DNA of 64,000 nt, taken from NCBI GenBank assembly GCA_028712665.1, contig JAQTRC010000003.1:12927-76926 (forward strand), written 5' to 3'. Below, piece by piece: positions 33,021-54,772 of this stretch (positions are counted from its first letter, which is position 1; each line of letters begins with the position of its first letter). Position numbers and translations under genes: made by a program. The notes under the pieces are model-generated. The model worked only from the letters and a program-made list of their open reading frames with translations. It was not told where the DNA came from and ran no database searches. This DNA comes from Desulfuromonadaceae bacterium. GTDB lineage: Bacteria; Desulfobacterota; Desulfuromonadia; Geobacterales; Pseudopelobacteraceae.

Positions 33021-33719
33021 ATGGAACCGTTCTTAAATTTTTCGGTCATCACCGACAATTTCACCTACTTCATGATCGGTCGCTTTCCACACGGGCCACT
33101 CGGAGGGGTTGGATTAACGCTTTACCTCGCTTTTGTTTCCTGCATCCTCTCATTCTTCGGTGGTTTGATTCTGGGACTCTTAAGCATCACCCGCTTCCCT
33201 CTTGTTCGATATCCGGCCCTGGCATTCATAAACCTTGTCCGCGGCATGCCGCTTCTGATGGTCATCTTCTGGATGTATTTTTTGCTTCCGGCCCTATTCG
33301 GCAAGGTCGCTGAAAATAATACGGTCATTATGGCTTTGACCCTCTTCACTTCGGCCTACATGTCACGCATAGTGATAGCGGGCATAGAAGGGATTCCCAA
33401 AGGACAGACGGAAGCAGCCCTCTCAACCGGTCTCAAATCATGGCAGGTCATGTTATACGTGGTTCTTCCGCAGGGCCTCCGCAACATGATCCCCTCTTTT
33501 GTCAACCAGTTCGTCTCGCTGATAAAGGATACCTCACTGGCCTTCATCGTCGGCGTTTCCGAACTGACTCACGTCGCGACCCAGATCAACAACCGGACCA
33601 TGGCTTTCCCGACCGAGATATTCATCTTCATCGCCATCGTTTACTTCATCCTCTGCTTCGCCTTCACTACTCTTTCCCGCTGGCTGGAACAGCGCCTCTC
33701 CTGGTCCAAAGCCATTTAG
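33021..33719 (+). CDS. amino-acid ABC transporter permease
   Basis: 232 aa. Second permease paralog with an EAA loop (EAALSTGLKSWQVMLYVVLPQG). Confidence 0.88.
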   Translation: MEPFLNFSVITDNFTYFMIGRFPHGPLGGVGLTLYLAFVSCILSFFGGLILGLLSITRFPLVRYPALAFINLVRGMPLLMVIFWMYFLLPALFGKVAENNTVIMALTLFTSAYMSRIVIAGIEGIPKGQTEAALSTGLKSWQVMLYVVLPQGLRNMIPSFVNQFVSLIKDTSLAFIVGVSELTHVATQINNRTMAFPTEIFIFIAIVYFILCFAFTTLSRWLEQRLSWSKAI

Positions 33720-33734
33720 GAAACAAAACCTACC

Positions 33735-34490: not shown

Positions 34491-34517
34491 AGCATATTCC
34501 AATTTCAAATCAGGGAT

Positions 34518-34832
34518 CTACTCGCCGGAAAAATATTCCCCCAGCACACCTCTGGAATGCTCGTCGTCATGGCAGTGAATACAAAGATTCTCCCAGTTCG
34601 ATCCGTCTGGCGGATTGTTCTGATGATTCCCATCCCTGTGATGTACCGTCAGCAGGTTCAGGCTGGCTGAGTCGAACTCCCGGCCGCACTTTGCACAGAC
34701 CGGGCCGTGAATTTTCAGGGATTTAGTCCGGTAGTTCGAGTTGCTGTCAACCTCGCCACGCATCCGTTTGAGAATTGCCGCTGCCTCATCGGCGCTGGGA
34801 AGGGTGACTGTTCTGGGGCCTCGTGATCTCAT
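34518..34832 (-). CDS. yajD: HNH-motif protein YajD
   Basis: CAKCGREF...LTVHHRDGNHQNNPPDGSNWENLCIHCHDDEH closely parallels E. coli YajD. Confidence 0.8.
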   Translation of the reverse strand: MRSRGPRTVTLPSADEAAAILKRMRGEVDSNSNYRTKSLKIHGPVCAKCGREFDSASLNLLTVHHRDGNHQNNPPDGSNWENLCIHCHDDEHSRGVLGEYFSGE

Positions 34833-34908
34833 CTGCTGTTCCCTTTTAATCTGTTGTTTTCTCCCTGTTGTCGCGGGGATTGCCTACTTAACCCACCGGT
34901 TCGGATCG

Positions 34909-37601: not shown

Positions 37602-38336
37602 CTACAGCGTTGCCGAAATAACTATCAGAACAATAGCTTCGTTGAGCTCACTTATGCAGCCGACCGTATCGCCGGTTAATCCTCCCAGCTTGCGCTGAAA
37701 AAAGAGTCGGCCGGCGCCGGTGAAAAGGCAGAGTGCGGCCATGGCGAGCATCCCTTTGAAACCGAGCAGACAGGCGCTGGCAACTGCTGTTGTTAGCGCT
37801 GCAAGAATAAGTGTTACAGTCCCCGTTCCCCGGGCAAAAGTTGCGCCCAGGCCATCCTGCCGGGCATGGCGGGCTCCGGTCAGTACAAGCACCTGTCCAA
37901 AACGGGCCAGGGCCGGGAAGAGTAGCAGCGCCTGCCATTTGAGTTCGTTCGGCACCGCCAGCAGCGCCTGCCACTTCAAGAGCAGAACCAGCACCAGTCC
38001 GACCGCTCCGACCGCGCCCACCTGTGAATCCTTCATTACCGCCAGGAAGCGCTCCCTCCCGCCACGAGCCGCCAGTCCGTCGCAGACATCTGCCAGGCCG
38101 TCCAGATGCAACCCACCGGTCAGAGCCGCCAGAGCGGCGACCAGCAGTGCATCGCATAGCGGGCGGGTCAGCAAGGGAGAGATCAGCCAGTTCAACCCGG
38201 CCAGCAGGGCGCCAATCGTCAATCCGGCCAAAGGAAAGAGTGCGGTCGAACGTCCCAGATCCTCCTTTTCGCACCGGGTGTCGAAGGGGAGCGGGATGAT
38301 GGTCAAAAATTGAAAGGCGATCAAAAAATGGCGCAT
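37602..38336 (-). CDS. cobS: adenosylcobinamide-GDP ribazoletransferase (cobalamin synthase)
   Basis: 244 aa, polytopic. N-terminus FQFLTIIPLP and the GGLHLDGLADVCDG motif. Confidence 0.9.
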   Translation of the reverse strand: MRHFLIAFQFLTIIPLPFDTRCEKEDLGRSTALFPLAGLTIGALLAGLNWLISPLLTRPLCDALLVAALAALTGGLHLDGLADVCDGLAARGGRERFLAVMKDSQVGAVGAVGLVLVLLLKWQALLAVPNELKWQALLLFPALARFGQVLVLTGARHARQDGLGATFARGTGTVTLILAALTTAVASACLLGFKGMLAMAALCLFTGAGRLFFQRKLGGLTGDTVGCISELNEAIVLIVISATL

Positions 38337-38469
38337 GGCATATCAATTACCACAGGGGAGTGAACCGGAACAGTAAAAAGTGGCGAATAACCGTCAGATA
38401 GCGGCAAGAAACCTGGAGCATCGGCCTGTTGCCGGTGGGGAGGATCTTCATGATCATTGCATTATCCTG

Positions 38470-38612
38470 AAAACAGATTTTGCCACAGAGGCACAGAGTC
38501 ACGGAGTGAATCGATGGCAGAAAGTCTATAATGCTTTTTTGGCTTACCCCCAAAAGACTTTTGTTTTGTCTTCATGGTCTTTCTCTGTGCCTCCGTGTCT
38601 CTGCGGCAGACT
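38470..38612. repeat. MITE/REP-like element with inverted CTCTGTGCCTC/CTCCGTG motifs
   Basis: GCCACAGAGGCACAGAGTCACGGAG at 38482..38506 faces CTCTGTGCCTCCGTGTCTCTGCGGC at 38583..38607. It lies inside a 290-bp non-coding gap in the cob operon. Confidence 0.55.
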
Positions 38613-38626
38613 TCCGTTAATCAAGA

Positions 38627-39961
38627 TTAAATCTTGTCCCCCTTCAAATCTGCGGCAAACAACTTTCCCGCACCGCGAGAGGCGCAGAAATCGCCGCACA
38701 TGGTGCAGGTGGCCTCGTCCTCCGGTCTGCGACTCTCCCTGATGGCGAGGGCATCCTCCGGATAGAGCGCCAGCTCGAACTGCTTCTCCCAGTTCAGGTC
38801 GCGGCGCGCCTTGGACATCTCTTTATCACGCTGGCGCCCCTTCTCCGGATATTTGTTCATATCGCCGATGTAGGCCGCAATTTTGGCCGCCTTGACCCCC
38901 ATCCGCACGTCCTCCTCGTTCGGGAGAGCCAGGTGCTCGGACGGGGTTATGTAGCAGATCAGATCGGCCCCGAAACGACTCGATTGGGCAGCGCCAATAG
39001 CGGCGGTGATATGGTCGAAACCGGGGGCCACGTCGGTTGCGATCGGGCCGAGCATATAGTACGGCGCGCCGCCGCTCATCCTTTTTTGCAGCTGGATGTT
39101 CCCCTCGATCTCGTCCAGAGGCAGATGTCCCGGCCCTTCCACCAGCATCTGGCACCCCATCTCGCGGCCGATCTCTGCAAGTTCGCAATTGAAGATCAAC
39201 TCCTGGGTCTGGACCCGGTCCGATGAGTCGTGAATCGCTCCGGCCCTGAGGCCGTTACCGAGAGAGAGCACGGTGTCGTACTTTTTCAGGATTGAGACCA
39301 CCCTGTCAAATTTCTCGTAGAGCGGGTTTTCACGGTTGTTGGCGATCATCCAGGCCACCATGGAAACTCCCCCTTTGGAAACCAGTCCGCCGTAACGGTA
39401 CCCCTGCTTGCGCAGCCGCTCGATGGTGCAGAGGTTGATACCGCAGTGCACAGCCATGAAGGCCATGCCGTCTGCGCACTGCCTCTCGATGATGTCGAAC
39501 AGCATCTCCTCGTCCAGCTTGTTCGGGTCTCCGTATTTACGGGCCGCCTCGCAGAAAGCCTGATAGAGCGGCACGTTGCCGACCGGAAGATCGACAGCGG
39601 CGACTACCTCCCGCCTGACCCGATCGAGGTCGCCGCCGACGGAGAGTTCCATAAGGGTGTCGGCCCCGGATTCCTCTGCTGCGAGAGCCTTCCTGATCTC
39701 AGCCCCATAGTCGATGATATCCGAGGAGGTGCCGATGGAGGCGTTGACCTTGGTGGAAAGTCCCTTGCCGATCCCGGCGATGCGGCCCGGCTTGCGGTTC
39801 TGGTTCCAGGGGATGACTATCTTACCTTCAGCCACCATTTTACGGATGTATTCAACATCGAGCTCTTCGTTAACGGCTACTGTCTGCATCTGAGCGGTGA
39901 TGAAGCCCTGCCGGGCGGATTCGATCTGCGTCAACATCGGTTCATTCCTCTCATCTCTCAT
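38627..39961 (-). CDS. bzaF: ThiC-family radical SAM enzyme, predicted 5-hydroxybenzimidazole synthase
   Basis: 444 aa ThiC homolog with a C-terminal Cys motif CTMCGDFC. It is embedded between cobT and cobS, downstream of a cobalamin riboswitch. Confidence 0.7.
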   Translation of the reverse strand: MRDERNEPMLTQIESARQGFITAQMQTVAVNEELDVEYIRKMVAEGKIVIPWNQNRKPGRIAGIGKGLSTKVNASIGTSSDIIDYGAEIRKALAAEESGADTLMELSVGGDLDRVRREVVAAVDLPVGNVPLYQAFCEAARKYGDPNKLDEEMLFDIIERQCADGMAFMAVHCGINLCTIERLRKQGYRYGGLVSKGGVSMVAWMIANNRENPLYEKFDRVVSILKKYDTVLSLGNGLRAGAIHDSSDRVQTQELIFNCELAEIGREMGCQMLVEGPGHLPLDEIEGNIQLQKRMSGGAPYYMLGPIATDVAPGFDHITAAIGAAQSSRFGADLICYITPSEHLALPNEEDVRMGVKAAKIAAYIGDMNKYPEKGRQRDKEMSKARRDLNWEKQFELALYPEDALAIRESRRPEDEATCTMCGDFCASRGAGKLFAADLKGDKI

Positions 39962-39978
39962 CTCTCATCATCGCCTTT

Positions 39979-41046
39979 TCACCCCTGCGATACCCCGGCC
40001 TGCTCGAAGGTCGCCATCTCTTTCAACAGCTTCACTCCGGCATCGATCAGGGTCATGGCCAAAGCGGCGCCTGTTCCTTCGCCAAGGCGGAGTTTGAGAT
40101 CAAGGATCGGTTCAACACCGATCCGCTCCAGCATGAAGCTATGGCCGATTTCTACCGACTGGTGGGCGGCGAATATGTAATCACGCACATTGGGATGCAG
40201 CTCCGAAGCGATCAGGGCTCCGGCCGTGGAGATGAAGCCATCGATCACCACCGGAATCGAGTTGGCGGCACAACCAAGCACCAATCCTGCAATAGCGGCT
40301 ATTTCGAACCCGCCAACCTTGGAAAGAACGTCAAGAGGATCTTTAGGGTCCGGGTTATTGACGGCAAGTCCAAGTTCGATTACCCGTACCTTATTGAGCA
40401 GGGCTGCATCGCCTATACCGGTGCCGCGGTGTGTGACCTCCGACACTTTTTTGCCGGATATGGCCGCTATAATGGCAGATGACGGCGTGGTGTTGCCGAT
40501 CCCCATCTCGCCGGTGCCGACCAGCCCCACCCCTTCAGCATGGCACTTGTCAGCCAGCTCGATTCCGACAAAGAGTGCGGCCTGCATCTCTTCGCGGGTC
40601 ATGGCCGGCCCCTTTGCAAAATTTCGGGTACCTCGTGCAACTTTTTTGCGTATCAGTCCGGCTGTATCGGCAAAGTCATAATCGACCCCGACATCAACCA
40701 CCCGCACCTCGGCCCCTGCATGACGCGCGAGGACGTTGATCCCCGCGCCTCCCGCCAGGAAATTAAAAACCATCTGCGCTGTTACTTCCTTGGGAAATAG
40801 CGAGACCCCCTCTTCTACGACCCCATGGTCAGCGGCAAAGGTAAAAATAACTCTCTTCGAGATATCCGGCTGCCGGCTGCCTCTGATACCGACAATACGG
40901 CAGGCAAACTCTTCCAGCCTCCCAAGCGAGCCAAGCGGCTTGGTCTTGTTGTCCAGAAGAAGCTGGGCCTGCTGTAGAAGATCGGGGCTGACCGGTTTAA
41001 TGCGTTCGAGCGTGTTTTTTATTTTATCCATATAATTCCCTTTCAT
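39979..41046 (-). CDS. cobT: nicotinate-nucleotide--dimethylbenzimidazole phosphoribosyltransferase
   Basis: 355 aa with motifs GEMGIGNTT and EGTGA. ATGA overlap with the cobU stop. Confidence 0.93.
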
Positions 41047-41576
41047 TTCAGTTTTAACGGAATCCCGCTGATAACGACATGGACCTCCGTCGCCGACGCT
41101 GCCAGTATTTGATTGGTCTTGCCGGCAATATCCCGGAACAGTCGCGCAAGGTTATTTTCCGGCACGATACCCATTCCCAACTCGTTTGACACCATTATTA
41201 CCGGCGTAACCATCCCGTGCAGAGTCGTTTTCAGACGCTGCACATCTTCGAAAATGCTGGCCTCGATATCTTCGCCGGATTGTTCATACTTGAGCAGCAG
41301 ATTGGAAAGCCAGAGTGTGATGCAGTCCACCAGTACAGCCCGATACTGACCATCACAGCGTGCCAGGGCCTGAGCGAGGTGAATCGGCTCCTCGATCGTC
41401 CTCCACTCCGCTCCGCGCCGTTCTATATGTCTGCTTACGCGCTCATCCATCTCTATATCCAGAGCCTGCGCCGTTGCCAGATAAGCGAGCTGCGCGCCGA
41501 AATTACGCGTCACTTTTTCGGCAAAGGCGCTCTTGCCGCTGCGTGCTCCACCGGTTATGAAGATAGTGTGTGACAT
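41043..41576 (-). CDS. cobU: adenosylcobinamide kinase / adenosylcobinamide-phosphate guanylyltransferase
   Basis: 177 aa with P-loop [10 protein letters not shown]. Confidence 0.92.
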
Positions 41577-41643
41577 AGTAACCCTCCTGAACTTTGATAA
41601 ACTGAAATTATCTCCATCATGAAATTGCAGAGTGAAACTCAGC

Positions 41644-41731
41644 GTTGTCCGGTTTGGTATTTGCAGTTGCCTAAAAGTCCCACCTCCCCTTGCGGGAGGG
41701 GAGGCTTAATGCAAAGAGCAAACCGGACACT
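41644..41731. repeat. nested palindromic element in the cob leader
   Basis: Outer arms GTTGTCCGGTTTGG and CAAACCGGACAC enclose the inner hairpin CCTCCCCTTGCGGGAGGGGAGG. Confidence 0.65.
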
Positions 41732-41743
41732 GCAGAGTAAAAC

Positions 41744-41773
41744 TAAAAAACCCCTGTCCGTGGTGGACAAGGG
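41744..41773 (-). terminator. riboswitch expression-platform terminator
   Basis: The minus strand reads CCCTTGTCC, ACCACG, GACAGGG, followed by GTTTTTTAGTTTT. Confidence 0.8.
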
Positions 41774-41839
41774 CTCGAAGCAACGGGGAATATACAACCC
41801 GACCTCGGCCCCTCTTTCCACGGAGGTTCCAGAAAGCGT

Positions 41840-42000
41840 CGGAATGGCAGGTTTCCTGGCTTCAGGGTCATCTTACTAGCCGCGCCTTCCCAAAATTACT
41901 TTCAGTGGCCGCTGCGGTTTTCATCGCCTGTTACAGTTGCGGGACAGCGAGGGGGTCGCACCCTCTTCCCTATTATCCGTGCCTTGAGCGGCACGGCACC
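41840..42000 (-). ncRNA. cobalamin (B12) riboswitch
   Basis: The minus strand contains AAUAGGGAAGAGGGUGCGA...CCCGCAACUGUAA, then GCCACUG...GGGAAGGCG, then the B12 box AGCCAGGAAACCUGCC. Confidence 0.9.
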
Positions 42001-42033
42001 AAAACCGTGTGTGATGTAACAATTGTAAGGAGG

Positions 42034-44701: not shown

Positions 44702-46645
44702 TCACTCCGCCTGCTGCATGACCCTCGATAATTCCGCCTCAAGCAGATTCATGCTGTACGGTTTCCGGATTAATCCGGAAGGGGCTTGACCGGTGGTGGT
44801 GCGCCCACCCAGTTCCTCTTCATTGAAGCCGCTGGCAAGGATTACCTTTGTGTCCGGCCTGATATTGTAAATTTCGTTCATCGCAGCTATTCCATCCATG
44901 TTCGGCATGGTCAGATCCATCAGAACGACAGCAATATCGTCCGAATGTTCACGGAATTTAGCGACCGCATCGACGCCGTCATGGGCGGTAATAACCCTGA
45001 AGCCGCAGAGCTTGACCATCTTGGTACAGACTTTAAGGACGGACTTTTCATCATCCACCACCAGGGCCAGACCGGAATGCGTGGTCAAAGGCATGGTGTC
45101 TATAACCGATGCAGACGTAACCTGTTCTTGATCCGTGGCAGGGAGTGAGGATTCCGAAACCGGGAACAGCGCCCTGAAGGTTGTCCCCTTGCCAGGTTTG
45201 CTCTCCACAAACAGGGCTCCGCGGTGTGTCCTCATTATCCCCATGACCGCCGACATTCCAAGTCCACGTCCGGTAAACTTCGTTGTAAAGAAGGGGTCGA
45301 AGATCAGTTTTATCGTTTCCTTGCTCATGCCGCAGCCGTTATCGCTGACCTCCAGGTACGCAAAGCGCCCCGGCAACGGTTTCTCCTCCAGCAGACTGGA
45401 GGCCAGAAAAGTTTGGTCGCAATCCTGGATGCCGGTGGTGAGCTTTATAATGCCCGGCTGCTCTTCAATCGATTCGGCGGCGTTGGTGATCAGATTCATC
45501 ACCACCTGCTGAATTTGGGCTTCACATGCCAAAATGGTCGGCAGTTCCGGAGAGAGGGACAGTTTCATCGAAGCGCCTGCCAGGACTACCGTATTAAGCA
45601 TTTCAGTATTATCCATGACCAGATGATTCAGGTTCACTTCCTCTTTGGTAATAAATCCGACGCCCACATAGGTCAGCATCAAGCTGGTAAGATGAGCTGC
45701 ATGCCTGCCCGAGTTCAAAGCATTTGCGAGATACTTTTGGGACTTCGAACTTGGAGCAAGCCCCATCGAGGCCAGCTCAATATTGCCGAGAATAGACTGC
45801 AAAAGGTTGTTGAAATCGTGGGCAATACCTCCCGCCATAACTCCCAGACTCTCCAGTTTCTGTGTTTGCAACATCTGACGTTCAAGATTCAAACGCTCTT
45901 CCTGGAGGCGGGAATTCTCCTCGCTTCGTTGTTGCAATTCGGTAGCCAGGTTATTGACGGCAACAGCCGCCCGACCCGGTTCATCATTGGTTACAATGTT
46001 GATCCGGGAGGTAAAGTCACCGTTATGCACGGCCTCTATTCCCTTCATAAGGGCATTAAAAGAGCCGGTGACCTGACGTAATACAATATGGCAGAACAGG
46101 GATACCGTCAGCCAGAAGAGAAAGGAAATGCTGACGGAGAATATAATCACATTGCGGACAGCAGCTGACAGGTCGGCCGTTCCACGCACAATTCGCACGG
46201 TTCCGATCTTGGTTCTGGAAGCTTCATGGCCACCGGTAAAGGATGAATCGACCGAATAGGTCAGGGGGTTACTGAACACTTCCACCGTTTGGCTTATCAA
46301 CCCGATTGATTTGGAATCGTCCGGCGAACCGACGAAGGCCAGGAGTTTGCCATCCGGATCGTTGATTACTACCGCGCTGATTTCCGGAGCCTGAGCCGCC
46401 CTCTCTGCCAACTGCCTCAGCAGATCGCGATTTCCGGCATACAGCGGAAGCCTGGCGGACTCGCCCAATTGCTCCGTACGCAGCTTGAGCTGTTCGTTAG
46501 CTGCGAGTCGTTTTTCTTGAATTACAGAGACAATGTACAGAAAGCACAACGTGCAGGCGATCAGAAAGGTCAGCAGGGAAAATATCGAGAAGAGTTTGAA
46601 TTGAAAACTGGATCGAAAGCTTGACGATCGTTCTGGTGGTGACAT
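44702..46645 (-). CDS. hybrid sensor histidine kinase (TM, periplasmic domain, TM, HAMP, HisKA, HATPase_c, REC)
   Basis: 647 aa. Two TM helices flank a ~140-aa periplasmic segment. H-box GGIAHDFNNLL, G-box GRGLGMS and a C-terminal receiver (LVVDDE...LMDLTMPNMDG). Confidence 0.9.
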   Translation of the reverse strand: MSPPERSSSFRSSFQFKLFSIFSLLTFLIACTLCFLYIVSVIQEKRLAANEQLKLRTEQLGESARLPLYAGNRDLLRQLAERAAQAPEISAVVINDPDGKLLAFVGSPDDSKSIGLISQTVEVFSNPLTYSVDSSFTGGHEASRTKIGTVRIVRGTADLSAAVRNVIIFSVSISFLFWLTVSLFCHIVLRQVTGSFNALMKGIEAVHNGDFTSRINIVTNDEPGRAAVAVNNLATELQQRSEENSRLQEERLNLERQMLQTQKLESLGVMAGGIAHDFNNLLQSILGNIELASMGLAPSSKSQKYLANALNSGRHAAHLTSLMLTYVGVGFITKEEVNLNHLVMDNTEMLNTVVLAGASMKLSLSPELPTILACEAQIQQVVMNLITNAAESIEEQPGIIKLTTGIQDCDQTFLASSLLEEKPLPGRFAYLEVSDNGCGMSKETIKLIFDPFFTTKFTGRGLGMSAVMGIMRTHRGALFVESKPGKGTTFRALFPVSESSLPATDQEQVTSASVIDTMPLTTHSGLALVVDDEKSVLKVCTKMVKLCGFRVITAHDGVDAVAKFREHSDDIAVVLMDLTMPNMDGIAAMNEIYNIRPDTKVILASGFNEEELGGRTTTGQAPSGLIRKPYSMNLLEAELSRVMQQAE

Positions 46646-46749
46646 GATCAGTCTCTCAGGCAGCTTATGGTTTGTAAATCAGGCCCGCACAAATATTATA
46701 CATTGCATGGTTCTAACGATTGGTATCACGACCTGATTGTCTATTGCAA

Positions 46750-47616
46750 CTAAAAACCATCCCCTTCGACTGATTGTCCCAGACGCTTCAACACAACGGG
46801 ATTGCTCCTGGGTATAATATTTTTCGGAAAAGCAAGCGGTATGCTGCCAATAGGGTCGCCGTTCAGAATCGCCGAGACCATGGCGCTGGCCTGACGCCCC
46901 AGGCTGATTCGGTCTATTTCAAGGACGACCGCCGCACCCAGCCCCAGATAATTGCCGGCAAAAGAGACGACCGGTATGGCCTGATCCTGTCCGAAACGGA
47001 AATATGCCTCGGTTGTTTCCCTGGTCACCGCTGTGCTGTCCGGCAGCATCCAGAGAGCATCCACCTTGCGGTCCAGCGTCGAAAGCCGTTCTATTGTCTC
47101 ACGGGGTTCGGATATTTCGCGGGTCACCAGTTCGATTCCGGTCGCTTCGGCGGCCTTGCGGGCCAGATGAAGGTACCAGCCGCTCCTGGCCGGATTGTAG
47201 ATTACGCCTACGCGTCTGGTTTTCATGGCCTGGAACATTCTGATACTGCGTTCCGGATGAACGAACATACCGATGCCGGTCAGGTTGGGGTGTAAAGCCT
47301 TCCGGCCATGGATGCCGAGCGACATTACGGTTACCACCGGAGTCTGCGGAACCTTGCGGGCCACTGTCAGGGCGGCGTCCCCCACGGCGAGTATCAGCGT
47401 CGGACGATCCTCGCGCACAATCCGGACAATATCCACCTCGGCATAGTCGGAGAGCACGATCACCCGACGTGAGACGGCACTATCGGCGCGGAAGCCCTTC
47501 AGCACCTCATCGTAGGCCTGATCGCGGCGACTCTGGAGCACCAGGACGTCATAGGCCTGGGCCAGAGAGGGGAGCAGGGTCGCCAGGGCGAGTATCAGAG
47601 AGACAAGGTATCTCAT
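46750..47616 (-). CDS. orphan periplasmic binding protein, ABC_sub_bind (PF04392/COG2984)-like, copy 1
   Basis: 288 aa with a signal peptide. Motifs NLTGIG, RRVGVIYNP, VDALWMLPD and IPVVSF match the ABC_sub_bind pattern. There is no permease or ATPase nearby. 1-nt overlap (TGATG) with the receptor gene. Confidence 0.75.
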   Translation of the reverse strand: MRYLVSLILALATLLPSLAQAYDVLVLQSRRDQAYDEVLKGFRADSAVSRRVIVLSDYAEVDIVRIVREDRPTLILAVGDAALTVARKVPQTPVVTVMSLGIHGRKALHPNLTGIGMFVHPERSIRMFQAMKTRRVGVIYNPARSGWYLHLARKAAEATGIELVTREISEPRETIERLSTLDRKVDALWMLPDSTAVTRETTEAYFRFGQDQAIPVVSFAGNYLGLGAAVVLEIDRISLGRQASAMVSAILNGDPIGSIPLAFPKNIIPRSNPVVLKRLGQSVEGDGF

Positions 47617-49451
47617 CAGAAGCTCACCCTCATTCCGCCTTCGAACCAGCGGCCGGGATTCGGAACCATATCATACTGGTACTGACCGTTGCTGAAGAGG
47701 TTCCGGCCGGAGAAGAACAGTTCCAGCGAACTGTTCTCGCGCTTGAAGAGGATCGCCCCCAGGTGCAGATCCCACAGCAGACCGCCGTAACGAGGGTTGT
47801 CTCCCGGCATGGAGTTCCAGTTGATATGGCTGCCGGTCAAGAGGGCGCGATAGGTTTTGTCGTCATACCGCAGGGAGAGTTTGACGGTGTGACGCGGGGC
47901 ATAATTGACCTGCGCGCCGTCGCTGCTGCGGGTGGTGTCTACGAAGGTGTATCCGGCCCCTAGTGAGGTATTCCAGAGCGGGGTGGTGCGGAGTTCGGCC
48001 TCAGCCCCCAAGGCTTCGTGCCGTTCCACATCCTTCCCCCATGTCTCATTGCGGAAGACGGTTCCCTTCAGCCAGAGATAGGGTACTGAGGTGCTCTCCA
48101 TGCCGATCTGGGTGGTCCAGATCTTCTCCGATGGCTTGTCCACGTCAAGAAACTGAGGCACGCCATAGCCACGGGCGGCATAGGCCCGCAGCATGGTAGT
48201 CTCGCTGGCCTGCCAGGTGCCCCCCAAAGAGTAGCTGTACTGGTCCCCTGCGGTCTGGGTGTGGTCGAAGCGGACTCCGGGGGTGACGCTGAAGCTCCCC
48301 AGCGTGACGGTGTCGTTCAGGTAGGCGCCCCAACGATCGGCAGCCCTGCTGAAAGGACTGTAGGTTGAACCGTCCATGGTGTTGCTGTTATTCTCCAGAT
48401 GGCTGTAGTCGCCACCCGTCACCAGCAGGTCATTATCCCCGCGCCGGACCAGTTTGATACTGGCGCCGCTGACCTGGTTGCTGAAACTGCCGGTGGGGAG
48501 ATCGGGCTGCCAAGTGAGGCCATCGCTGATGTTGAACCAGGAAGTATCGCCTTTCAGAAATGAGTGGCGAGCGCTGAATTCCAATTCCAGCCGCTCGCTG
48601 AGCGGCTGGCGCAGGCCGATGTTGGCGAAGAGCAGGCTTTTGTCCTGATTCTCCTTCAGATCATAGGCCGGGATGAAGAGATCCCCCTGCCTGATCTGGC
48701 TGCGGTTGAAGGTGGCGTAGAGCCGGCCGCTGCCGGGGAGATCCCAGGTCAGTCGGGCATGGGCGTTGGTGGAGGCGTTCTGGGTATTGGGGAGGATGCC
48801 GTTGCTCCCCAGGAAACCGCCCGATAGGTAGTACCCCAGTCTTCCGCTGCTGCCGGAGAGTTCCAGGGAACTGTCGGCGGTGGTCCGCTCGCCGATGGAG
48901 GCGCTGGCAGTGCCGGAGAGGGTGCGGTCTTGCACCGGAGCCTTGGTGATAACGTTGATCACCCCGGCCAGGGCCGAGCCCCAGGCCGCAGAAGCAGCTC
49001 CTTTGACGATCTCGACCCGCTCGATGATCCGGGCCGGAATCAGGGTGGTTTCGGAGTAATTGTCCCCAAGATTGGTTATTGAGAGCCCGTCCACAAAGAC
49101 CTGGACGTGTTGGAAGCTGGAACTTTGGATAAAAGTGTAGGCGGTGATGCCGGGACCGCCGTTGTGCAAAACCTGGATGCCGGGGATTGTATCGAGAATG
49201 TCGGCCAGGGTATGGGCGTTCATGGCCGCGATGTCGGCGAAGGTTATAACGGTGACGTTCTCGGCGGTCTGGGAGAGCGGCTTGGGGGCGCGGCTGGCTG
49301 TGGAGGCGCTCTCCTGCCAGGCGCTGAACAGTTCGAGGGTATCCTCGTCGTCCGGCTCGGCGGCTAAAACCGTACAGGGCAGGAGCACGATCATCAACCA
49401 GATGACAGAAAACAATCCCCGCAGGGTATGTAAAGGTGAGAAATTTGACAT
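47616..49451 (-). CDS. TonB-dependent outer-membrane receptor, copy 1
   Basis: 611 aa with a signal peptide, a plug domain (ENVTVIT...IERVEIVKGAASAAWGS), a beta-barrel and a terminal Phe. Confidence 0.9.
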   Translation of the reverse strand: MSNFSPLHTLRGLFSVIWLMIVLLPCTVLAAEPDDEDTLELFSAWQESASTASRAPKPLSQTAENVTVITFADIAAMNAHTLADILDTIPGIQVLHNGGPGITAYTFIQSSSFQHVQVFVDGLSITNLGDNYSETTLIPARIIERVEIVKGAASAAWGSALAGVINVITKAPVQDRTLSGTASASIGERTTADSSLELSGSSGRLGYYLSGGFLGSNGILPNTQNASTNAHARLTWDLPGSGRLYATFNRSQIRQGDLFIPAYDLKENQDKSLLFANIGLRQPLSERLELEFSARHSFLKGDTSWFNISDGLTWQPDLPTGSFSNQVSGASIKLVRRGDNDLLVTGGDYSHLENNSNTMDGSTYSPFSRAADRWGAYLNDTVTLGSFSVTPGVRFDHTQTAGDQYSYSLGGTWQASETTMLRAYAARGYGVPQFLDVDKPSEKIWTTQIGMESTSVPYLWLKGTVFRNETWGKDVERHEALGAEAELRTTPLWNTSLGAGYTFVDTTRSSDGAQVNYAPRHTVKLSLRYDDKTYRALLTGSHINWNSMPGDNPRYGGLLWDLHLGAILFKRENSSLELFFSGRNLFSNGQYQYDMVPNPGRWFEGGMRVSF

Positions 49452-49539
49452 GGCGTTAGCGTTAGCGTTGTAGTATACATATTTCAGTCCGGTTGTCCAC
49501 CGGTTATGTTATGTAAATCCACACGCAAGGGGGGTGAAC

Positions 49540-49644
49540 ATGATGCAGGAAACACACGAGGAACTGTTGGTGCTGGAAGAGGGCCACGAGGTTGGTGTTG
49601 TAAATTCGTGCTGCTCGGCAGCGCAAAATGCAAAGCTCAAGTAG
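49540..49644 (+). CDS. candidate RiPP precursor peptide (34 aa, not in ORF track)
   Basis: Ribosome-binding site AAGGGGGG ends 5 nt before the ATG. Translation: MMQETHEELLVLEEGHEVGVVNSCCSAAQNAKLK, i.e. an acidic leader-like half and a Cys-Cys core-like half. It is divergent from receptor copy 1 and on the same strand as the rSAM/SPASM gene. Confidence 0.5.
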   Translation: MMQETHEELLVLEEGHEVGVVNSCCSAAQNAKLK

Positions 49645-49653
49645 TCGTCACGA

Positions 49654-49676
49654 CCGGGAGGGCGTGTCCCTCCCGG
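49654..49676 (+). terminator. GC-rich hairpin 10 nt after the peptide stop (possible terminator or stabiliser, no U-tract)
   Basis: CCGGGAGGG, CGTGT, CCCTCCCGG. Confidence 0.4.
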
Positions 49677-49787
49677 CTGCCCCATCGAAATATCCCCGCC
49701 GGTTTATCCGCGACATCCATAATCGTGCCAAAATACAAAATGCACAAAGAAGGTATCAGCATTTCATGGGGGGGGTGAGTATGTTTT

Positions 49788-50093
49788 TTATGCGGCTTTC
49801 ATCGGGTGTTCCTTCAAGTATGTCCGCAGCGCCTCATTCATGCGAGTCTGCCAGCCTTTGCCGGTAGACTTGAAAGTCGTGAGAATATCCCGGTCAAGCC
49901 GAACTGTCTGCAGCTCTTTAACGCCGCTGCCCAGCTTGCGGCCTGATTTGGGCGCCAGCATCCCGTCCGCAACTTCTTTGCCTAAAATCTCATGCAGCAC
50001 TTCCCGTGCAGGCCGGGCATTTTTGAAATCCTCGGCAGTCCATTCCGGGTTTTCGTCATCAATCAAGCATGGATTCGGTTTGGTTGTTGCCAT
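49788..50093 (-). CDS. brnA: BrnA-family antitoxin
   Basis: 101 aa. The C-terminus VRLDRDILTTFKSTGKGWQTRMNEALRTYL matches the BrnA RHH-like pattern. Confidence 0.8.
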   Translation of the reverse strand: MATTKPNPCLIDDENPEWTAEDFKNARPAREVLHEILGKEVADGMLAPKSGRKLGSGVKELQTVRLDRDILTTFKSTGKGWQTRMNEALRTYLKEHPMKAA

Positions 50094-50346
50094 GTTCTTT
50101 TACCTCTCTATTGTTAGCTTTTCTAAGACTTATGACGTGAATCCCGCCGTTTCTGGGAGTTATCACCGCAACATGCAGACGCTCACCAATATAACCAAAA
50201 ACCCTGAAGCGTCTTTCGCCATAATCCTTTCGGGTGTCTTCTCTGACTACGGAATTATCCCAGTCGATACTTGCAAACAGCTCGAAAGAAAGGCCGCGCT
50301 CTTCAATGTTTCTGCTGTTTTTGACTTCATTATAAGTAATCTTCAC
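50059..50346 (-). CDS. brnT: BrnT-family (DUF497) ribonuclease toxin
   Basis: 95 aa. The pattern N..ERGLSFE...DYGERRF...HVISLRKAN is typical of BrnT. Overlaps brnA by 35 nt. Confidence 0.8.
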   Translation of the reverse strand: MKITYNEVKNSRNIEERGLSFELFASIDWDNSVVREDTRKDYGERRFRVFGYIGERLHVAVITPRNGGIHVISLRKANNREVKEHGNNQTESMLD

Positions 50347-50375
50347 AACAATATTTGTAACAACATATTCAACTC

Positions 50376-51740
50376 ATGTCAATGGAGAAAACCCGGGCTG
50401 CAACCCGTTGCAACCCATCATTACCACCGATCGAAAGGGCATCGTCCATGGAACTTACCCACTACCACAAAATCTACCCCATACCTGACAAACCGGGGCG
50501 GCTGCTGCTGGTCGCCACCCGTCGCTGCTCTCTTCTTGAGCTTTCCGAGGCGCTGTGGGACAAGCTCTGCAACGGCGGCGAGCTGACCCAAAAGGAACTG
50601 GAGACTTTTATCCGCCTGGGGGTGCTGGTGGAAAGCCGCGCCGACGAACGGGAAGAGATGCGGGGCACCTTTGACACCATAAACAGCTCAAGCCGACGCT
50701 TTGAGGTGACGGCGGCCCTGACCCTGGAGTGCAATCTGGCCTGCCCCTACTGTTTCGAAGATCCCTTCCGGGGGCGTTTCGTGATGAGCGCGGAGACCGC
50801 CGGCCTTCTGGTGCAGCTCCTCTGCGAGCGGATGTCCGCCGGTCTGGATGTATTGGTGGATTTCTACGGCGGCGAGGCTTTGATGCGGCTCGATCTGCTG
50901 CGGGGGATCGCCGCGCGCTTGAAGGATGCAGCCAGCCTCCACGGAGTAACCTTTGCCTTCAACCTCTTCTCCAACGGTGTCCTGCTGACCCGCAACGTGG
51001 TGGAGGAACTGCTGCCGCTGGGGCTGGCGGCGGTGCGGACAACCCTGGACGGCCCCCCCGACATCCACGACGCCCAGCGTCCGTTCGTCTCCGGCAAGGG
51101 GAGTTTTGACGTTATCCTGAAAAACCTGGTCTCGGTGCATGATATAGTGGCGCTGGATCTTGGGGGGAACTACACCTGCGAGAATTACCGCCGCTTCCCC
51201 GAGCTGCTGGATATCATGTTGGAGGCGGGAATCGACCCAGCACGGCTGAAAGGGGTCGATTTTTCGCCGGTCATGCCGAAGGCGGACGGCAGCGTGTCCG
51301 GCGATTTCGGTTCCGCCTGCGCATGTACGGGAGAGGCATGGGTAATTGAGGCCAACCTGTTTCTGCGGGATGAAATCATCCGGCGTGGCTTCCCGACTTC
51401 AAAGCTTCAGGCGAGCGCCTGCATGATCGAGTTCGCCAACGATATCGTGGTGGGATATGATGGTTCGTTCTATAAATGCCCGGTGTTCATGGGAGACCAG
51501 GAGATGCGGGTAGGGAGTCTGGCCGAGGGGATAGGCGACTACCGCCAATCCCACAACATGGACGTCTGGAAGAGCGACGAATGCCTGGAGTGCGCCTATC
51601 TGCCGCTCTGCTTCGGCGGCTGCCGATTCTTTCGCAAGTTGAAGAGCGGAGCGATCGATGGTGTTGACTGTCGCCGAACGATGCTGGACGCCTCGCTGGA
51701 GCGGATCGTCCGGCAGGATCTGTCGTTGAAGCGGCAGTAG
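50376..51740 (+). CDS. radical SAM/SPASM-domain peptide maturase
   Basis: CNLACPYC (CX3CX2C). SPASM motifs CX13GX4C (CMIEFANDIVVGYDGSFYKC) and CX2CX5CX3C (CLECAYLPLCFGGC). About 70 aa of RRE/PqqD-like N-terminal domain. The likely true start is the ATG at 50448 (MELTHYHKIYP). Confidence 0.88.
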   Translation: MSMEKTRAATRCNPSLPPIERASSMELTHYHKIYPIPDKPGRLLLVATRRCSLLELSEALWDKLCNGGELTQKELETFIRLGVLVESRADEREEMRGTFDTINSSSRRFEVTAALTLECNLACPYCFEDPFRGRFVMSAETAGLLVQLLCERMSAGLDVLVDFYGGEALMRLDLLRGIAARLKDAASLHGVTFAFNLFSNGVLLTRNVVEELLPLGLAAVRTTLDGPPDIHDAQRPFVSGKGSFDVILKNLVSVHDIVALDLGGNYTCENYRRFPELLDIMLEAGIDPARLKGVDFSPVMPKADGSVSGDFGSACACTGEAWVIEANLFLRDEIIRRGFPTSKLQASACMIEFANDIVVGYDGSFYKCPVFMGDQEMRVGSLAEGIGDYRQSHNMDVWKSDECLECAYLPLCFGGCRFFRKLKSGAIDGVDCRRTMLDASLERIVRQDLSLKRQ

Positions 51741-51877
51741 TTTGTTCAGCGATTCCCTTATAGAAGAATTCCATCTCTGGCCGGTTGTCCGGAGCGCTCG
51801 TTCCCGGGATTCTACATTTGTATGACTTTAACGAATTGGTATCATGGCCTGATTGCCCGCTGCAACTAAAAACCACC

Positions 51878-52735
51878 CTACTCGACTGATTGCCGGAGGC
51901 GCTTCAATACAACGGGATTACCTTTGGGCATTATGTTTTTTGGAAAAGCAAGCGGTCTGCTGCCGATAGGATCGTCCTCAAAAATTGCCGAGATCAGGGC
52001 GTTGGCCTGACGCCCCAGGCCGATTCGGTCTATTTCTAGCACGGCAGCTGCGCCAAGTTCCAGATAAGTTGCTGCAAAGGATACCACCGGCACACCCAGA
52101 TCCTGACCGAATCGGAAATAGGCCTCGGTTGTTTCCCGGGTAATGGCGGTAGTGTCAGGGATCATCCAGAGCGCATCCACTTTGTCCGCCAGGGAAGAGA
52201 TTTGGGCCAGCGTCTCGGATGATCTTGAGACCTCGCGGGTCACCAGTGTTATTCCGGCCGCCTGTGCCGCATTTTGAGCAAGCCGCAGGTACCAGCCGCT
52301 TTTGGCTGGATCGTAGATAAGGCCAACCCGCCTGGCTTTCATGCTCTTGAAAATGCTGATGTAGCGTTCCGGCGAAACGAACATACCGATGCCGGTCAGA
52401 TTGGAACGTGAAGACTTTTTGTCATGAATTCCGAGCGCCATAAGAGCGACCACCGGGATATGCTGTACCTTGCAGGCCTCTTTCAAGGCGGCGTCCCCCA
52501 AGGCCAGGATTAGCCTGGGGCGATCCTCGCGCACAATCCTGGATACGTCCAGATAGGAGTAATCGGAGAGCACCATCAGGCGGTAGCTGGCACTGTTCCC
52601 GGCACGGAAGCCTTTCAGCGCCTCCTCGTAACCGGTGTCGCGCCGACTCTGCAGCACCAGCACGTCGTAAGCCTGGGCAATGGTGGGGAGCAGGGTCGCC
52701 ATGGCGAGTATGATATAGATTAAGAGGGCTCGCAT
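51878..52735 (-). CDS. orphan periplasmic binding protein, ABC_sub_bind-like, copy 2
   Basis: The ATG at 52735 gives MRALLIYIILAMATLLPTIAQA, a signal peptide, with the same 1-nt TGATG overlap as copy 1. Collinear with copy 1 along the whole length, roughly two-thirds identical by eye. Confidence 0.75.
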   Translation of the reverse strand: MRALLIYIILAMATLLPTIAQAYDVLVLQSRRDTGYEEALKGFRAGNSASYRLMVLSDYSYLDVSRIVREDRPRLILALGDAALKEACKVQHIPVVALMALGIHDKKSSRSNLTGIGMFVSPERYISIFKSMKARRVGLIYDPAKSGWYLRLAQNAAQAAGITLVTREVSRSSETLAQISSLADKVDALWMIPDTTAITRETTEAYFRFGQDLGVPVVSFAATYLELGAAAVLEIDRIGLGRQANALISAIFEDDPIGSRPLAFPKNIMPKGNPVVLKRLRQSVE

Positions 52736-54606
52736 CAGAACTTCACCCTTAATCCGCCTTCGAACCATCGGGGAGCATTTACGCGGTAATCATCTGTGTA
52801 TTGAGCGTTATTGAAGAGATTGCGCCCGGAGAAAAACAGTTCCGACTCCACGCCTGCGCAATTTGGGAGCTTTTGCGAGATGTGAAGATCCCACTCCATC
52901 TGCCTGTCGTGGACGCTGTTCCCGGCATCGGACGGCCAGTTGACATGCGAACCGGTAATGTTTGCCTGAAACCCTCTCCTGACATTGTCATAGTGGAGGG
53001 CAATCCTTGTGGAACTGATCGGGATATACGGAATGCGGAGATCGGTTTTTTTGTCCCGAACGTCACTGTAAGTGTAGCCTGCTCTAAGGGAGAAGTCATA
53101 AAAGGGGACTGTGCGCCCTTCGATTTCAAATCCCCGTCTTACCTCCTTGGTTTCGGCGCTGCCAATCGCTGACATAGGGTAGTCCGACGGGACAACGAAG
53201 CTCTGAATGTTCCAGGTGTAACTGTAAAAGAGAGTCCCTTTCAGCCAGAGCAACGGGATGTCACTGGTTTCAATCCCGGACTGCAAGGTAAAGATATTCT
53301 GCAGGCTGTCCTTAAAGTTAGTCATGGGGAGGCTGTATCCCCTCGCAGCATAGGCACGGAGCAGAGTCTTCTCCGTAAACTGCCAGGTTGCCCCAAGATG
53401 GTAACTGGTTGCAACTTGTTCATTATCTCCGATATGGTCTAACCGTACCCCCGTCAGCAAGGTCAGATCGCCGATGGAATAGCTTCCATTAACATATGTC
53501 CCGTAGCGATTCATGTCCCGGTTGAAATTCATGTAGGAAAATCCGAGTAGCGGTTCACTGACGGAGACTTTGTCATGCAGATACTCAAACCCGGCAGCCA
53601 GATTGGTTCTGCGGTCTCCCCAGGTGAGTTTGGCGGCAACCTGTTCCGAATCGGTCCGATTCTTTGCATCAACTATCGTGATGGCTTCAGACATGATGTA
53701 CTTTCGCCAGATATCTTTCCTCATTACAGAAGAAAAGAGTTCCAGGTTGAGCCGGTCATTTATCGGGTATTCGAATCTAAGATACGCGGACGCATAGCGT
53801 GAACCGGTCGGAACAAGAGTATCAGGCATTATAGACGCATTATCGTAACCATAGTTGAACTCCCTGTCGCGGTAGTCGGCGGCAAATGTCAGCCTCCCCT
53901 TGTTAGGCAAGTCATAGGTTAACTTGCCAATGCCGTGATTAAGGGTAACCATGTTCCCCGGACGCAACCCGTTGGAGTTGAAACGACCGCCATCTATATA
54001 ATAACCCAGCCTCCCCTTTTTACCGCTTACTCCGCCACGCAGATCCGAAGTTCCGAGATCCCCGTAAGAGGCCGAAGCGATCCCTTTCAGATTTGCGTTC
54101 TCCGGATCACGCGTGATAACATTTACCGCACCTCCAAGCGCCGGGCCCCAGGCGACAGACGCAGCACCCTTGACAATCTCGATCCGTTCTATCCGCTGGA
54201 CCGGGATCATCCCGAGATCGGGGCTGTCATCCACCCCGAAGAGGTTCTGTGGAACACCATCGATCAGAAGCAGAACCTGATTGTTCATCGCGCCGTTAAT
54301 TGTAAATGCTACCGCACTACCCGGCGTCCTCATCTGGAAAAGCTGGATACCGGAGACCGTCTGCAGCACCTCATCCAGGGTATGGGCATTTATGCGGGCT
54401 ATGTCGTCCGCTGTGATTACCGTGACGTTTTCGGCGATTAAAGACGCGGGGCGGGGGATTTTGTAAGAAGGAATGTTTGTATCTTTACCATCACCGTCAA
54501 GGCCAAGGGCGCTTTCCACGGCATTATCTTCTCCCCGGGCCGGAAAAGCAGTCAATGCCGGGCAGAGCAGCAGAAACAACAGCAGCAGCCTTGTGGGAAA
54601 TCTCAT
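52735..54606 (-). CDS. TonB-dependent outer-membrane receptor, copy 2
   Basis: About 623 aa from the ATG at 54606 (the ORF track uses TTG at 54612). Signal peptide, plug (ENVTVIT...IERIEIVKGAASVAWG), barrel and terminal Phe. Confidence 0.9.
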   Translation of the reverse strand: MRFPTRLLLLFLLLCPALTAFPARGEDNAVESALGLDGDGKDTNIPSYKIPRPASLIAENVTVITADDIARINAHTLDEVLQTVSGIQLFQMRTPGSAVAFTINGAMNNQVLLLIDGVPQNLFGVDDSPDLGMIPVQRIERIEIVKGAASVAWGPALGGAVNVITRDPENANLKGIASASYGDLGTSDLRGGVSGKKGRLGYYIDGGRFNSNGLRPGNMVTLNHGIGKLTYDLPNKGRLTFAADYRDREFNYGYDNASIMPDTLVPTGSRYASAYLRFEYPINDRLNLELFSSVMRKDIWRKYIMSEAITIVDAKNRTDSEQVAAKLTWGDRRTNLAAGFEYLHDKVSVSEPLLGFSYMNFNRDMNRYGTYVNGSYSIGDLTLLTGVRLDHIGDNEQVATSYHLGATWQFTEKTLLRAYAARGYSLPMTNFKDSLQNIFTLQSGIETSDIPLLWLKGTLFYSYTWNIQSFVVPSDYPMSAIGSAETKEVRRGFEIEGRTVPFYDFSLRAGYTYSDVRDKKTDLRIPYIPISSTRIALHYDNVRRGFQANITGSHVNWPSDAGNSVHDRQMEWDLHISQKLPNCAGVESELFFSGRNLFNNAQYTDDYRVNAPRWFEGGLRVKF

Positions 54607-54772
54607 CTGCAAGGAAAAACCTCTAAGTTTTGATTACTTGATTGATATGACCTAACACAACTGGTGGCAAGTTGTCCAGTGCATATGATATTATTCAAAA
54701 AATTGGTGCTACTGCTGCGTAAAGAATATAATGGCGATACTAATCTTTCTGCAAGCATGATATATAATCCTG

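Follow-up and report, generated by a model that had tools for sequence, protein, structure and literature searches.

The window is a 64,000-nucleotide stretch of DNA from a Desulfuromonadaceae bacterium (assembly GCA_028712665.1, contig JAQTRC010000003.1, forward-strand positions 12,927 to 76,926). Between its positions 44702 and 54612 it carries a locus in which a short Cys-Cys peptide and a radical SAM/SPASM maturase are encoded among two TonB-dependent receptors (TBDRs), two periplasmic PF04392 binding proteins (SBPs) and a hybrid sensor histidine kinase. We observed the same gene families, linked in the same way, in related loci that differ in gene order and come from two phyla, together with a family of peptides and a close co-evolution of the binding protein with the sensor of the kinase. 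This conserved association makes it very probable that the cassette is one functional unit. The features of the locus in the window are as follows.

44702-46645, minus strand: hybrid sensor histidine kinase (Pfam HAMP, HisKA, HATPase_c and REC [Response_reg])
46750-47616, minus strand: binding protein SBP1 (PF04392, ABC_sub_bind; 57.3 bits, cutoff 25.9)
47616-49451, minus strand: receptor TBDR1, 611 amino acids (aa) (Pfam Plug, PF07715, and TonB_dep_Rec_b-barrel, PF00593)
49452-49539: divergent control region of 88 bp between TBDR1 and the precursor
49540-49644, plus strand: geopeptide-type precursor, 34 aa, MMQETHEELLVLEEGHEVGVVNSCCSAAQNAKLK, with the ribosome-binding site (RBS) AAGGGGGG 5' of the open reading frame (ORF)
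49654-49676, plus strand: GC-rich hairpin of 9 bp after the stop codon, found by folding
49788-50093, minus strand: brnA (PF14384; 80.5 bits, cutoff 26.1)
50059-50346, minus strand: brnT (PF04365; 70.6 bits, cutoff 34.5)
50448-51740, plus strand: radical SAM/SPASM maturase (TIGR04280), 430 aa when counted from the annotated start (ORF from 50376)
51878-52735 or 52768, minus strand: binding protein SBP2 (PF04392; 54.8 bits, cutoff 25.9)
52735-54612, minus strand: receptor TBDR2 (Plug and barrel, PF07715 and PF00593)

Sixteen homologs of the maturase led to 79 genome loci, 45 of which encode true family members (at least 40% identity). The window proteins were compared by BLAST with all ORFs of these loci, and unsupervised clustering of all ORFs gave the same result. 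The recurrent neighbors in the 45 genome loci were the receptor (36 loci), the PF04392 binding protein (31) and a HAMP kinase (at least 23), with an NtrC-type sigma54 regulator beside REC-less kinases in about 9. Where the upstream flank was at least 6.5 kb (n = 29), the receptor was found in 28 loci, the binding protein in 27 by BLAST and in all 29 by clustering, and the kinase in 22, or 24 when Pfam assignments in L040 and L041 were added. A reciprocal set of 80 metagenome loci, found from the binding protein with a 9-sequence alignment, was screened for the cassette genes only, without clustering. Here a receptor adjoined the binding protein in 57/60 loci, the maturase lay beyond it in 38/44, and a kinase was located downstream of the binding protein in 47 to 49 of 57. 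The arrangement occurs in more than 80 independent loci, which places it far beyond chance. A preliminary description, made from the letters of the window, had proposed the linkage of the maturase with the receptor, binding protein and kinase, and the gene-neighborhood check confirmed it; the order and strands of the genes that it listed were likewise borne out by the ORF listing and by hidden Markov model (HMM) scans.

In the canonical, divergent order, the kinase, binding protein and receptor genes run leftward and those of the peptide and maturase run rightward. A variant is seen in L014, L016, L017, L021, L025 and L028, in which the receptor, at times with a second binding protein, is convergent and 3' of the maturase. 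In two Nitrospirota metagenome-assembled genomes (MAGs), the genes form a single compact, co-directional run in the order receptor, peptide, maturase, binding protein, kinase, REC-GerE regulator. A kinase accompanied by two receptor/binding-protein pairs is seen in the window, in L030 and in L161. Cultured carriers exist in Geomonas (Geomonas paludis Red736 and Geomonas diazotrophica Red69), Geotalea (Geotalea toluenoxydans JCM 15764), Geomesophilobacter and Pelobacter propionicus.

We also noted that L030 (positions 5413 to 17539), from Geomesophilobacter sediminis Red875, contains two complete producer/receptor cassettes in tandem, with peptides of different classes and with one kinase and one NtrC-type regulator at or between them. 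This cultured strain is well suited to tests of channel specificity.

The maturase matched TIGR04280 (geopeptide radical SAM maturase) with 637 bits against a cutoff of 400, over model positions 1 to 427 of 428, as had been guessed in the preliminary description, which pointed to the Geobacter geopeptide family. A 100% identical public protein, from a Desulfuromonadaceae MAG, is named geopeptide radical SAM maturase, and in the public record translation is annotated to begin at M25 (50448). The SPASM model TIGR04085 (51.4 bits versus 27) and PF04055 (39.7 versus 29.5) were also matched. The motif of the radical SAM cluster, CNLACPYC (CX3CX2C), is invariant in the 16 homologs, and the SPASM cysteines CX2CX5CX3C (C379 to C392) are invariant among homologs. 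The next-best families, all of the thioether type and all below their cutoffs, were CefB, TIGR04463, Clo7bot, PapB and SCIFF (E values of 1e-28 to 1e-37), and the closest solved structure was that of CteB (5wgg; E = 1e-25). The CteB/SCIFF, PapB/freyrasin and CefB systems are thus the nearest by HMM and structure, and their substrates too are short, Cys-containing peptides. However, the identity of these enzymes to the maturase is only 25 to 30%, their substrates carry repeated Cys motifs rather than a single Cys-Cys, and, unlike in the cassette, no TonB receptor, binding protein or kinase is linked to them. Judged by these sequence relationships, thioether-type cross-linking appears to be the most likely chemistry. 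The maturase probably recognizes the N-terminal φxφφEEG segment of the precursor and places its modification at the invariant Cys-Cys or close to it.

The window peptide has the layout LLVLEEG, 8 aa, CC, 9 aa. When the window was translated in all six frames, the motif matched this peptide alone, and no second precursor was found upstream of TBDR2 or elsewhere in the window. A small ORF, each time with a strong RBS, precedes the maturase on its strand in nearly every locus, so that the 34-codon ORF is conserved beside the maturase, with about 80 homologs. These related peptides are 27 to 38 aa long, and nearly all consist of φxφφ(E/D)(E/Q)G (in full, [LIVM]x[LIVM][LIVMF](E/D)(E/Q)G), a spacer of 7 to 13 aa, CC and a tail of 7 to 10 aa. 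The Cys-Cys is kept, and the spacer and tail differ in sequence and not in length. The Cys-Cys is replaced by CKC in three loci (L127, L128 and L039; e.g., LMVLEEGVSCDVEMACKCTKGPIKVN) and by Cys-Phe in L037, natural variants that could help to define the requirements of the maturase. The peptides were sorted into class A, to which the window peptide belongs (...VLEEG-x8-CC-xxxxSAK[LIV]); class B (IEVLDEGVE..EMVSACCTGG..SARK); class C (LVIIEEGTD...CCW.AF.F), with hydrophobic aromatic tails; and class D (LVVLEKGNDCAFEGPLGACC...).

The preliminary description had also suggested that the peptide is a geopeptide precursor. In position and architecture it agrees with TIGR04229, the geopeptide model of 22 positions, but it fails the cutoff of that model (30 bits), with no match even at E values up to 10. 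A class-B peptide (MEIEVLNQGVEECQMVAACCTGG...) scored 36.8 bits, a Geotalea peptide scored 40.5, and the class-A peptide of L019 scored 11. Since related peptides pass and the nearest relative reaches only 11 bits, we regard the window peptide as a divergent member of the family that the model does not detect.

A further ORF was seen in the class-A locus L034, where a methyltransferase-like protein of about 210 aa is encoded between precursor and maturase (positions 9171 to 10001), and a GGDEF protein and a receiver protein are encoded 3' of the maturase. With these proteins, that lineage may have a further tailoring step and an output through c-di-GMP.

On the receiver side, a signal peptide and a TonB-box-like segment (AENVTVIT) were read from the sequence of TBDR1, and its barrel would have 22 strands, going by its BtuB-like size. 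Its orthologs in loci with class-A peptides are 55 to 77% identical. TBDR2 is only 37% identical to TBDR1, and the receptor most similar to it (69%) is that of L085, a triad of receptor, binding protein and kinase without a nearby maturase or peptide. Neither receptor reached an NCBIfam equivalog. BtuB was the best NCBIfam and PDB match of both (105 and 89 to 92 bits, versus 600 to 836), and the cob operon with its riboswitch lies 3 to 7 kb to the left, so one might take the receptors for ordinary BtuB or siderophore receptors of the neighboring cob genes that lie beside the peptide genes by accident. We consider this highly improbable. The match to BtuB is mainly to the plug, the sole riboswitch (41829-42018) precedes cobU and none precedes either receptor, and conservation next to the cassette is seen for the receptor (28/29 and 57/60 loci) but not for the cob genes. 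The conservation data refute this explanation. With BtuB at 105 bits versus 600 and no riboswitch, the receptor pairs also do not belong to a known uptake system, a possibility that had been raised in the preliminary description. A FecA-type transducer was considered and rejected: the receptors consist of Plug and barrel only, without an STN extension, and the conserved set has no sigma/anti-sigma gene.

In both receptor/binding-protein pairs, the stop codon of the receptor overlaps the start of the binding protein by 1 nt. Both binding proteins have cleavable signal peptides; that of SBP1 ends in LAQA, before YDV, and leaves a mature protein of about 265 aa. An AlphaFold2 (AF2) model of SBP1 (pLDDT 86) has a class-I fold, and Foldseek matched it to 3lft (Trp bound), 3lkv and 6hni/6hnj at E values of about 1e-15. 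The closest structures (3lft, 3lkv and 6hni) are Trp/Tyr/Phe-binding PF04392 proteins. The TrpX equivalog was not reached by SBP1 (36 versus 390). All ligands reported for the PF04392 family are aromatic amino acids, bound as single residues in the solved structures. We found no permease or ATPase partner for the binding protein in the locus and none conserved across the 45 clustered genome loci. SBP2 is 69% identical to SBP1, its nearest relative among those sampled, and has no kinase of its own; the public record holds a 285-aa protein, P0164, on the same contig.

The kinase is ordered as a first transmembrane helix (TM1), a periplasmic domain of about 125 aa, a second helix (TM2), HAMP, HisKA, HATPase and REC. 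An AF2 model of residues 1 to 240 (pLDDT 79) contains TM1, a long helix, four strands, TM2 and HAMP, which corresponds to a single PDC/PAS-like sensor. Foldseek matched this sensor to the extracellular domain of WalK/YycG, the periplasmic domain of the LapD-like CdgS9, and CitA; the WalK and LapD-type periplasmic domains that resemble it are protein-binding. The LuxQ equivalog was not reached (73 versus 1200). A search with the sensor region alone returned only 8 homologs, too few to show the spread of the sensor. The window kinase has its receiver fused, with no Hpt or DNA-binding regulator nearby.

We propose that the cassette combines a producer module, consisting of the 34-aa precursor and the TIGR04280 enzyme, with a receiver module, consisting of a TonB-dependent receptor, a PF04392 binding protein without an ABC transporter and a kinase whose periplasmic sensor is small and of the PDC type. 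After modification, the peptide would leave the cell, whole or as a fragment, by some export route. The cognate receptor would then pump it back over the outer membrane with TonB energy, the periplasmic binding protein would capture it, and the loaded binding protein would dock on the sensor domain of the kinase. Docking would switch a phosphorelay that runs through the fused receiver here and through an NtrC-type or NarL-type regulator in other lineages. The second receptor/binding-protein pair would give the same kinase one more input channel, and triads without peptide genes would be additional or eavesdropping channels. In this scheme we infer the chemistry, the export, the identity of the ligand, the docking and the output. 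This sequence of release, return through the receptor, binding and report to the kinase is the simplest mechanism and our leading explanation, and we judge it about as likely as not. We put a probability of roughly one in three (0.35) on the fuller proposal of TonB-gated peptide signaling, in which the radical-SAM-modified peptide is a density or kin signal, class-specific and exchangeable gates feed a common binding-protein/kinase reader, and orphan triads eavesdrop.

Parts of this scheme have parallels. Binding-protein-dependent kinases are known in LuxP/LuxQ (AI-2), TorT/TorS and ChvE/VirA, whose ligands enter via porins. As in the cassette, a class-I binding protein that lacks a transporter reports to a membrane hybrid kinase. 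LuxQ has a PAS/PDC-type sensor fold as well, but as a tandem pair rather than a single PDC, and there is no sequence relationship. In place of porin entry, the cassette has a TonB-dependent gate that is encoded upstream and is translationally coupled. Periplasmic sensing is coupled to uptake in PfeA with PfeS/PfeR of Pseudomonas and in the SusC-type transporters with hybrid sensors of Bacteroides (e.g., BT1754). These resemble the cassette in that TonB-dependent import is followed by periplasmic two-component sensing. Their ligands, however, are a siderophore and sugars and not a self-made peptide as proposed here; PfeS has no binding-protein co-receptor, and BT1754 carries the binding-protein fold as part of the kinase itself, whereas in the cassette the binding protein is separate.

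In order to follow the co-evolution of the components, pairwise identity matrices of 41 non-redundant complete cassettes were compared. The strongest correlation was that of the binding protein with the kinase sensor (r = 0.91; partial r = 0.81 to 0.88 when controlling for receptor, maturase or kinase core). The receptor correlated with the maturase at r = 0.84 (partial 0.69, controlling for the binding protein) and with the binding protein at only 0.71 (partial 0.36, controlling for the maturase), despite their overlapping genes. The peptide correlated with the maturase at r = 0.76 (partial 0.50 to 0.62, controlling for receptor or binding protein) and with the receptor at 0.65 (partial 0.06, P = 0.09, not significant in a partial Mantel test controlling for the maturase). 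This pattern indicates two blocks, one of peptide, maturase and receptor and the other of binding protein and kinase sensor. Individual loci show the same division. SBP1 and the kinase core of the window are 64 to 74% and 68 to 73% identical, respectively, to those of the class-B loci L084, L010, L012 and L027, the receptors of which are only 36 to 38% identical to TBDR1. Several class-A loci have receptors that are 57 to 65% identical and yet have another type of kinase.

Several observations weigh against the proposed circuit. The release step lacks a visible route, as there is no conserved exporter or leader peptidase: neither is present in the locus, as the preliminary description had stated, and beyond same-species synteny the 45 genome loci have no recurrent exporter, C39 or other peptidase, ABC permease or further tailoring enzyme. 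No peptide of the family has a signal peptide or a double-glycine site. In the N terminus of the maturase (residues 1 to 94) there is no Pfam match to a RiPP recognition element (RRE)/PqqD domain at E values up to 10, and the PDB profile match to CteB begins only at position 73. The precursor and maturase genes of the window are separated by brnTA. A scan for sigma54 promoters (at least 10 of 11 consensus positions), prompted by the NtrC-type regulators in about 9 loci, found none upstream of the peptides or anywhere in 21 loci. It is unlikely that the binding protein encloses a 3-kDa peptide, given its mature size and its aromatic amino-acid family. The binding-protein/kinase block is common to loci of differing peptide class; together with the single-amino-acid ligands of PF04392, this means that the ligand that is sensed may be a small conserved moiety or terminus rather than the peptide as a whole. 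The partial correlation of 0.06 between peptide and receptor means that receptor specificity is not separable from shared ancestry. Finally, about 14% of triads (L080, L085, L106, L111, L126 and L160) have no maturase or peptide nearby. Because no export is visible, because a small-ligand binding protein is independent of the peptide class, and because receptor and peptide co-variation is inseparable from ancestry, two other explanations of the cassette stay alive.

The first is that the triad senses an unrelated external compound, one too large or too scarce for porins, and regulates the divergent peptide-maturase operon as its target; the peptide would have its role elsewhere, perhaps inside the cell or as an antimicrobial, and would never be the ligand. 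Divergent promoters within a shared 88 bp are a typical regulator-target layout, and several of the points just given, namely, a peptide without an export signal, a binding-protein/kinase block independent of the peptide class, triads without any peptide and free aromatic amino acids as the known ligands of PF04392, fit this explanation. We nevertheless regard it as doubtful, since in this binding-protein subfamily the triad is found almost exclusively beside geopeptide maturases (38/44), and the orphan triads, which lie in unrelated contexts, share no alternative partner gene. The receptor also tracks the maturase (r = 0.84) more than it tracks the binding protein encoded by the overlapping gene (0.71). 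Furthermore, L030, with its two peptide classes, has a separate receptor/binding-protein pair for each class, and in Nitrospirota all six genes are in the one compact co-directional run.

Two of the orphan triads, in L080 (6280-12900) and L085 (6204-12852), lie in the same synteny in two metagenomes. Both are directly 3' of a radical SAM protein of 336 to 343 aa and of PCMT (isoaspartyl methyltransferase), on the same strand.

The second explanation is salvage of a metallophore or cofactor. The modified peptide, or a small Cys-Cys-derived product cleaved from it, would chelate a metal or be a redox cofactor and would be a public good that the receptor recaptures; the binding protein would hand it to an unlinked ABC importer or hold it in the periplasm, and the kinase would only induce uptake genes on arrival of the loaded compound, as PfeS/PfeR do for enterobactin. 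A receptor and a binding protein are the classical uptake pair, the Cys-Cys is invariant, in contrast to a spacer and tail whose sequences, though not their lengths, vary, and the binding-protein family takes small ligands and is conserved across the peptide classes. Orphan receptor modules recall xenosiderophore piracy, and PqqA/PqqE/PqqU and MbnA/MbnT/MbnE are precedents. On the other hand, the cassette has no conserved inner-membrane transporter, reductase, esterase or further tailoring enzyme, and no Fur-like box or metal-responsive regulator was evident by eye in the control regions, for which no formal scan was run. In addition, homologous maturases turn thiols into thioethers, which removes the obvious metal ligands, and the tight co-evolution of the binding protein with the kinase sensor points to signaling over transport. 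We consider this explanation unlikely.

The preliminary description had likened the locus to those of methanobactin, and this holds as an analogy only. Methanobactin loci encode MbnA, MbnB/C, the receptor MbnT, the binding protein MbnE, the exporter MbnM and the sigma/anti-sigma pair MbnI/R. The likeness lies in a ribosomal peptide product, a dedicated TonB receptor, a binding protein in the periplasm and regulation that is coupled to uptake; the sole component in common is the TonB-receptor superfamily. Maturation of methanobactin is by DUF692/MNIO enzymes rather than by a radical SAM enzyme, MbnE is a large PF00496 binder rather than a small class-I PF04392 protein, an exporter is present, and signaling is through a receptor extension and a sigma factor rather than through a binding protein and a kinase. 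Membership in the methanobactin group was rejected, as no MbnB/MbnC, PF00496 MbnE or MATE exporter is present in the locus or among the conserved neighbors.

The 88-bp control region contains a sigma70-like promoter for the TBDR1 operon on the minus strand at 49499..49472 (TGGACA-16-TATACT; 10/12), which shares a GTATAC palindrome with the presumed promoter of the peptide. TGTCCA, the plus-strand form of the -35 element, and GTATAC/TATAC are conserved in class-A relatives. The control regions of class-B loci contain CTAGCA(A/G)A, 15 to 16 nt and T(A/G)T(A/C)TA. A direct repeat of GCGTTA (2.8 copies; 49452-49468) abuts the start codon of TBDR1 and is not conserved in L019.

The hairpin that follows the precursor in the window (centroid, -19.3 kcal/mol; z = -0.74) is not significant alone and has no U-tract. 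For the 70 nt after the stop codon in 71 unique loci, the median was -26 kcal/mol, and values of -20 or below were obtained in 94% versus 39% of control windows. The arm sequences of the hairpins differ among loci. The structure could be an attenuator or an mRNA-stabilizing element.

brnT and brnA overlap by 35 nt and form a type II toxin-antitoxin pair that sits exactly between the precursor hairpin and the maturase, in the window only. BLAST with BrnT and BrnA gave no matches in the 45 genome and 80 metagenome loci. brnTA was therefore rejected as a part of the system, being absent from the screened relatives and a window-specific insertion. The gap between the precursor and maturase genes, which lie on the same strand, is 804 bp in the window, versus 94 bp in the closest relative, L019, and about 50 to 110 bp in most relatives, because brnTA was inserted. 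The insertion may uncouple transcription of the maturase from the peptide promoter; the maturase ORF, which is intact, has its own promoter-like site (50342-50369). In L014, the sequence 3' of the maturase (11371-11916) gave a subthreshold match to an IS200/Y1 transposase (E = 8e-4; 20 bits versus 23). This ORF and brnTA suggest that the intergenic spaces of the cassette may tolerate the insertion of mobile elements.

Outside the locus, both flanks are occupied by housekeeping genes without relation to it: on the left, a cob operon with a cobalamin riboswitch and then groEL, and on the right, ferrochelatase. The limits given in the preliminary description are thus the true limits. That description had also stated that the window contains no ABC permease or ATPase for the locus. 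This is right for the locus but not for the window as a whole, which has an ABC importer of the polar-amino-acid type at 30637-33719 (ATPase, PF00497 binding protein and two PF00528 permeases). Since this importer is separated from the locus by 11 kb, comes with a binding protein of its own and is not conserved next to the cassette in other genomes, the statement that the locus has no transporter holds. The importer is part of an unrelated cluster (29756-36876) that also encodes a DUF3108 protein, a TauE exporter and, on the opposite strand, a dCache-HAMP histidine kinase. The operon at 37602-42018 (minus strand) encodes CobU, CobT/DBI_PRT, a ThiC-family radical SAM protein and CobS, of the cobalamin lower-ligand and nucleotide-loop pathway. 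Its full-length cobalamin riboswitch (41829-42018; 114 bits), upstream of cobU, was the sole match when known RNA elements were scanned for and lies outside the locus. The presence of a ThiC paralog within a cob operon suggests an anaerobic benzimidazole (BzaF-type) synthase.

With respect to known systems, the closest is the TIGR04229/TIGR04280 geopeptide system, which agrees with the cassette in maturase, in the architecture and position of the precursor and in taxonomy (Geobacter and relatives). It differs in that the class-A precursor of the window is below the cutoff; the database family is a prediction made up of two models, and we found no publication on a product, its structure, chemistry or function, and no description of receptor, binding-protein or kinase partners for it. 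Within the literature library searched, no publication mentioned 'geopeptide' or TIGR04280 and none described a triad of TonB receptor, PF04392 binding protein and kinase. No publication on the linkage was found either, in agreement with the remark in the preliminary description that no account of it was known. The general idea has a precedent, since clusters for ribosomally synthesized and posttranslationally modified peptides (RiPPs) with TonB transporters exist, such as that of ItfF in Bacteroides. The producer pair is thus catalogued but uncharacterized, and the new part is the combination of a RiPP with dedicated uptake and a binding-protein-dependent kinase.

These results place the producer pair as one half of a conserved cassette of five or six genes and so give geopeptides a testable biological context. 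They also define an envelope signaling architecture made up of a TonB receptor, a transporter-less binding protein and a PDC kinase. Work by genetics and mass spectrometry is feasible, since the cassette is present in several cultured isolates. Should the peptide prove to be the ligand, the cassette would be a Gram-negative peptide autoinducer circuit that needs active import over the outer membrane, unlike acyl-homoserine lactone or AI-2 signaling, and if its gates are exchangeable, one kinase would integrate several peptide channels. If the product is instead a metallophore or cofactor, it would represent a new class of public good in anaerobic metal reducers. The cassette occurs in Nitrospirota and is widespread in metal-reducing, biofilm-forming Geobacterales; in Geobacter and relatives, biofilm and electroactive behavior is of practical interest.

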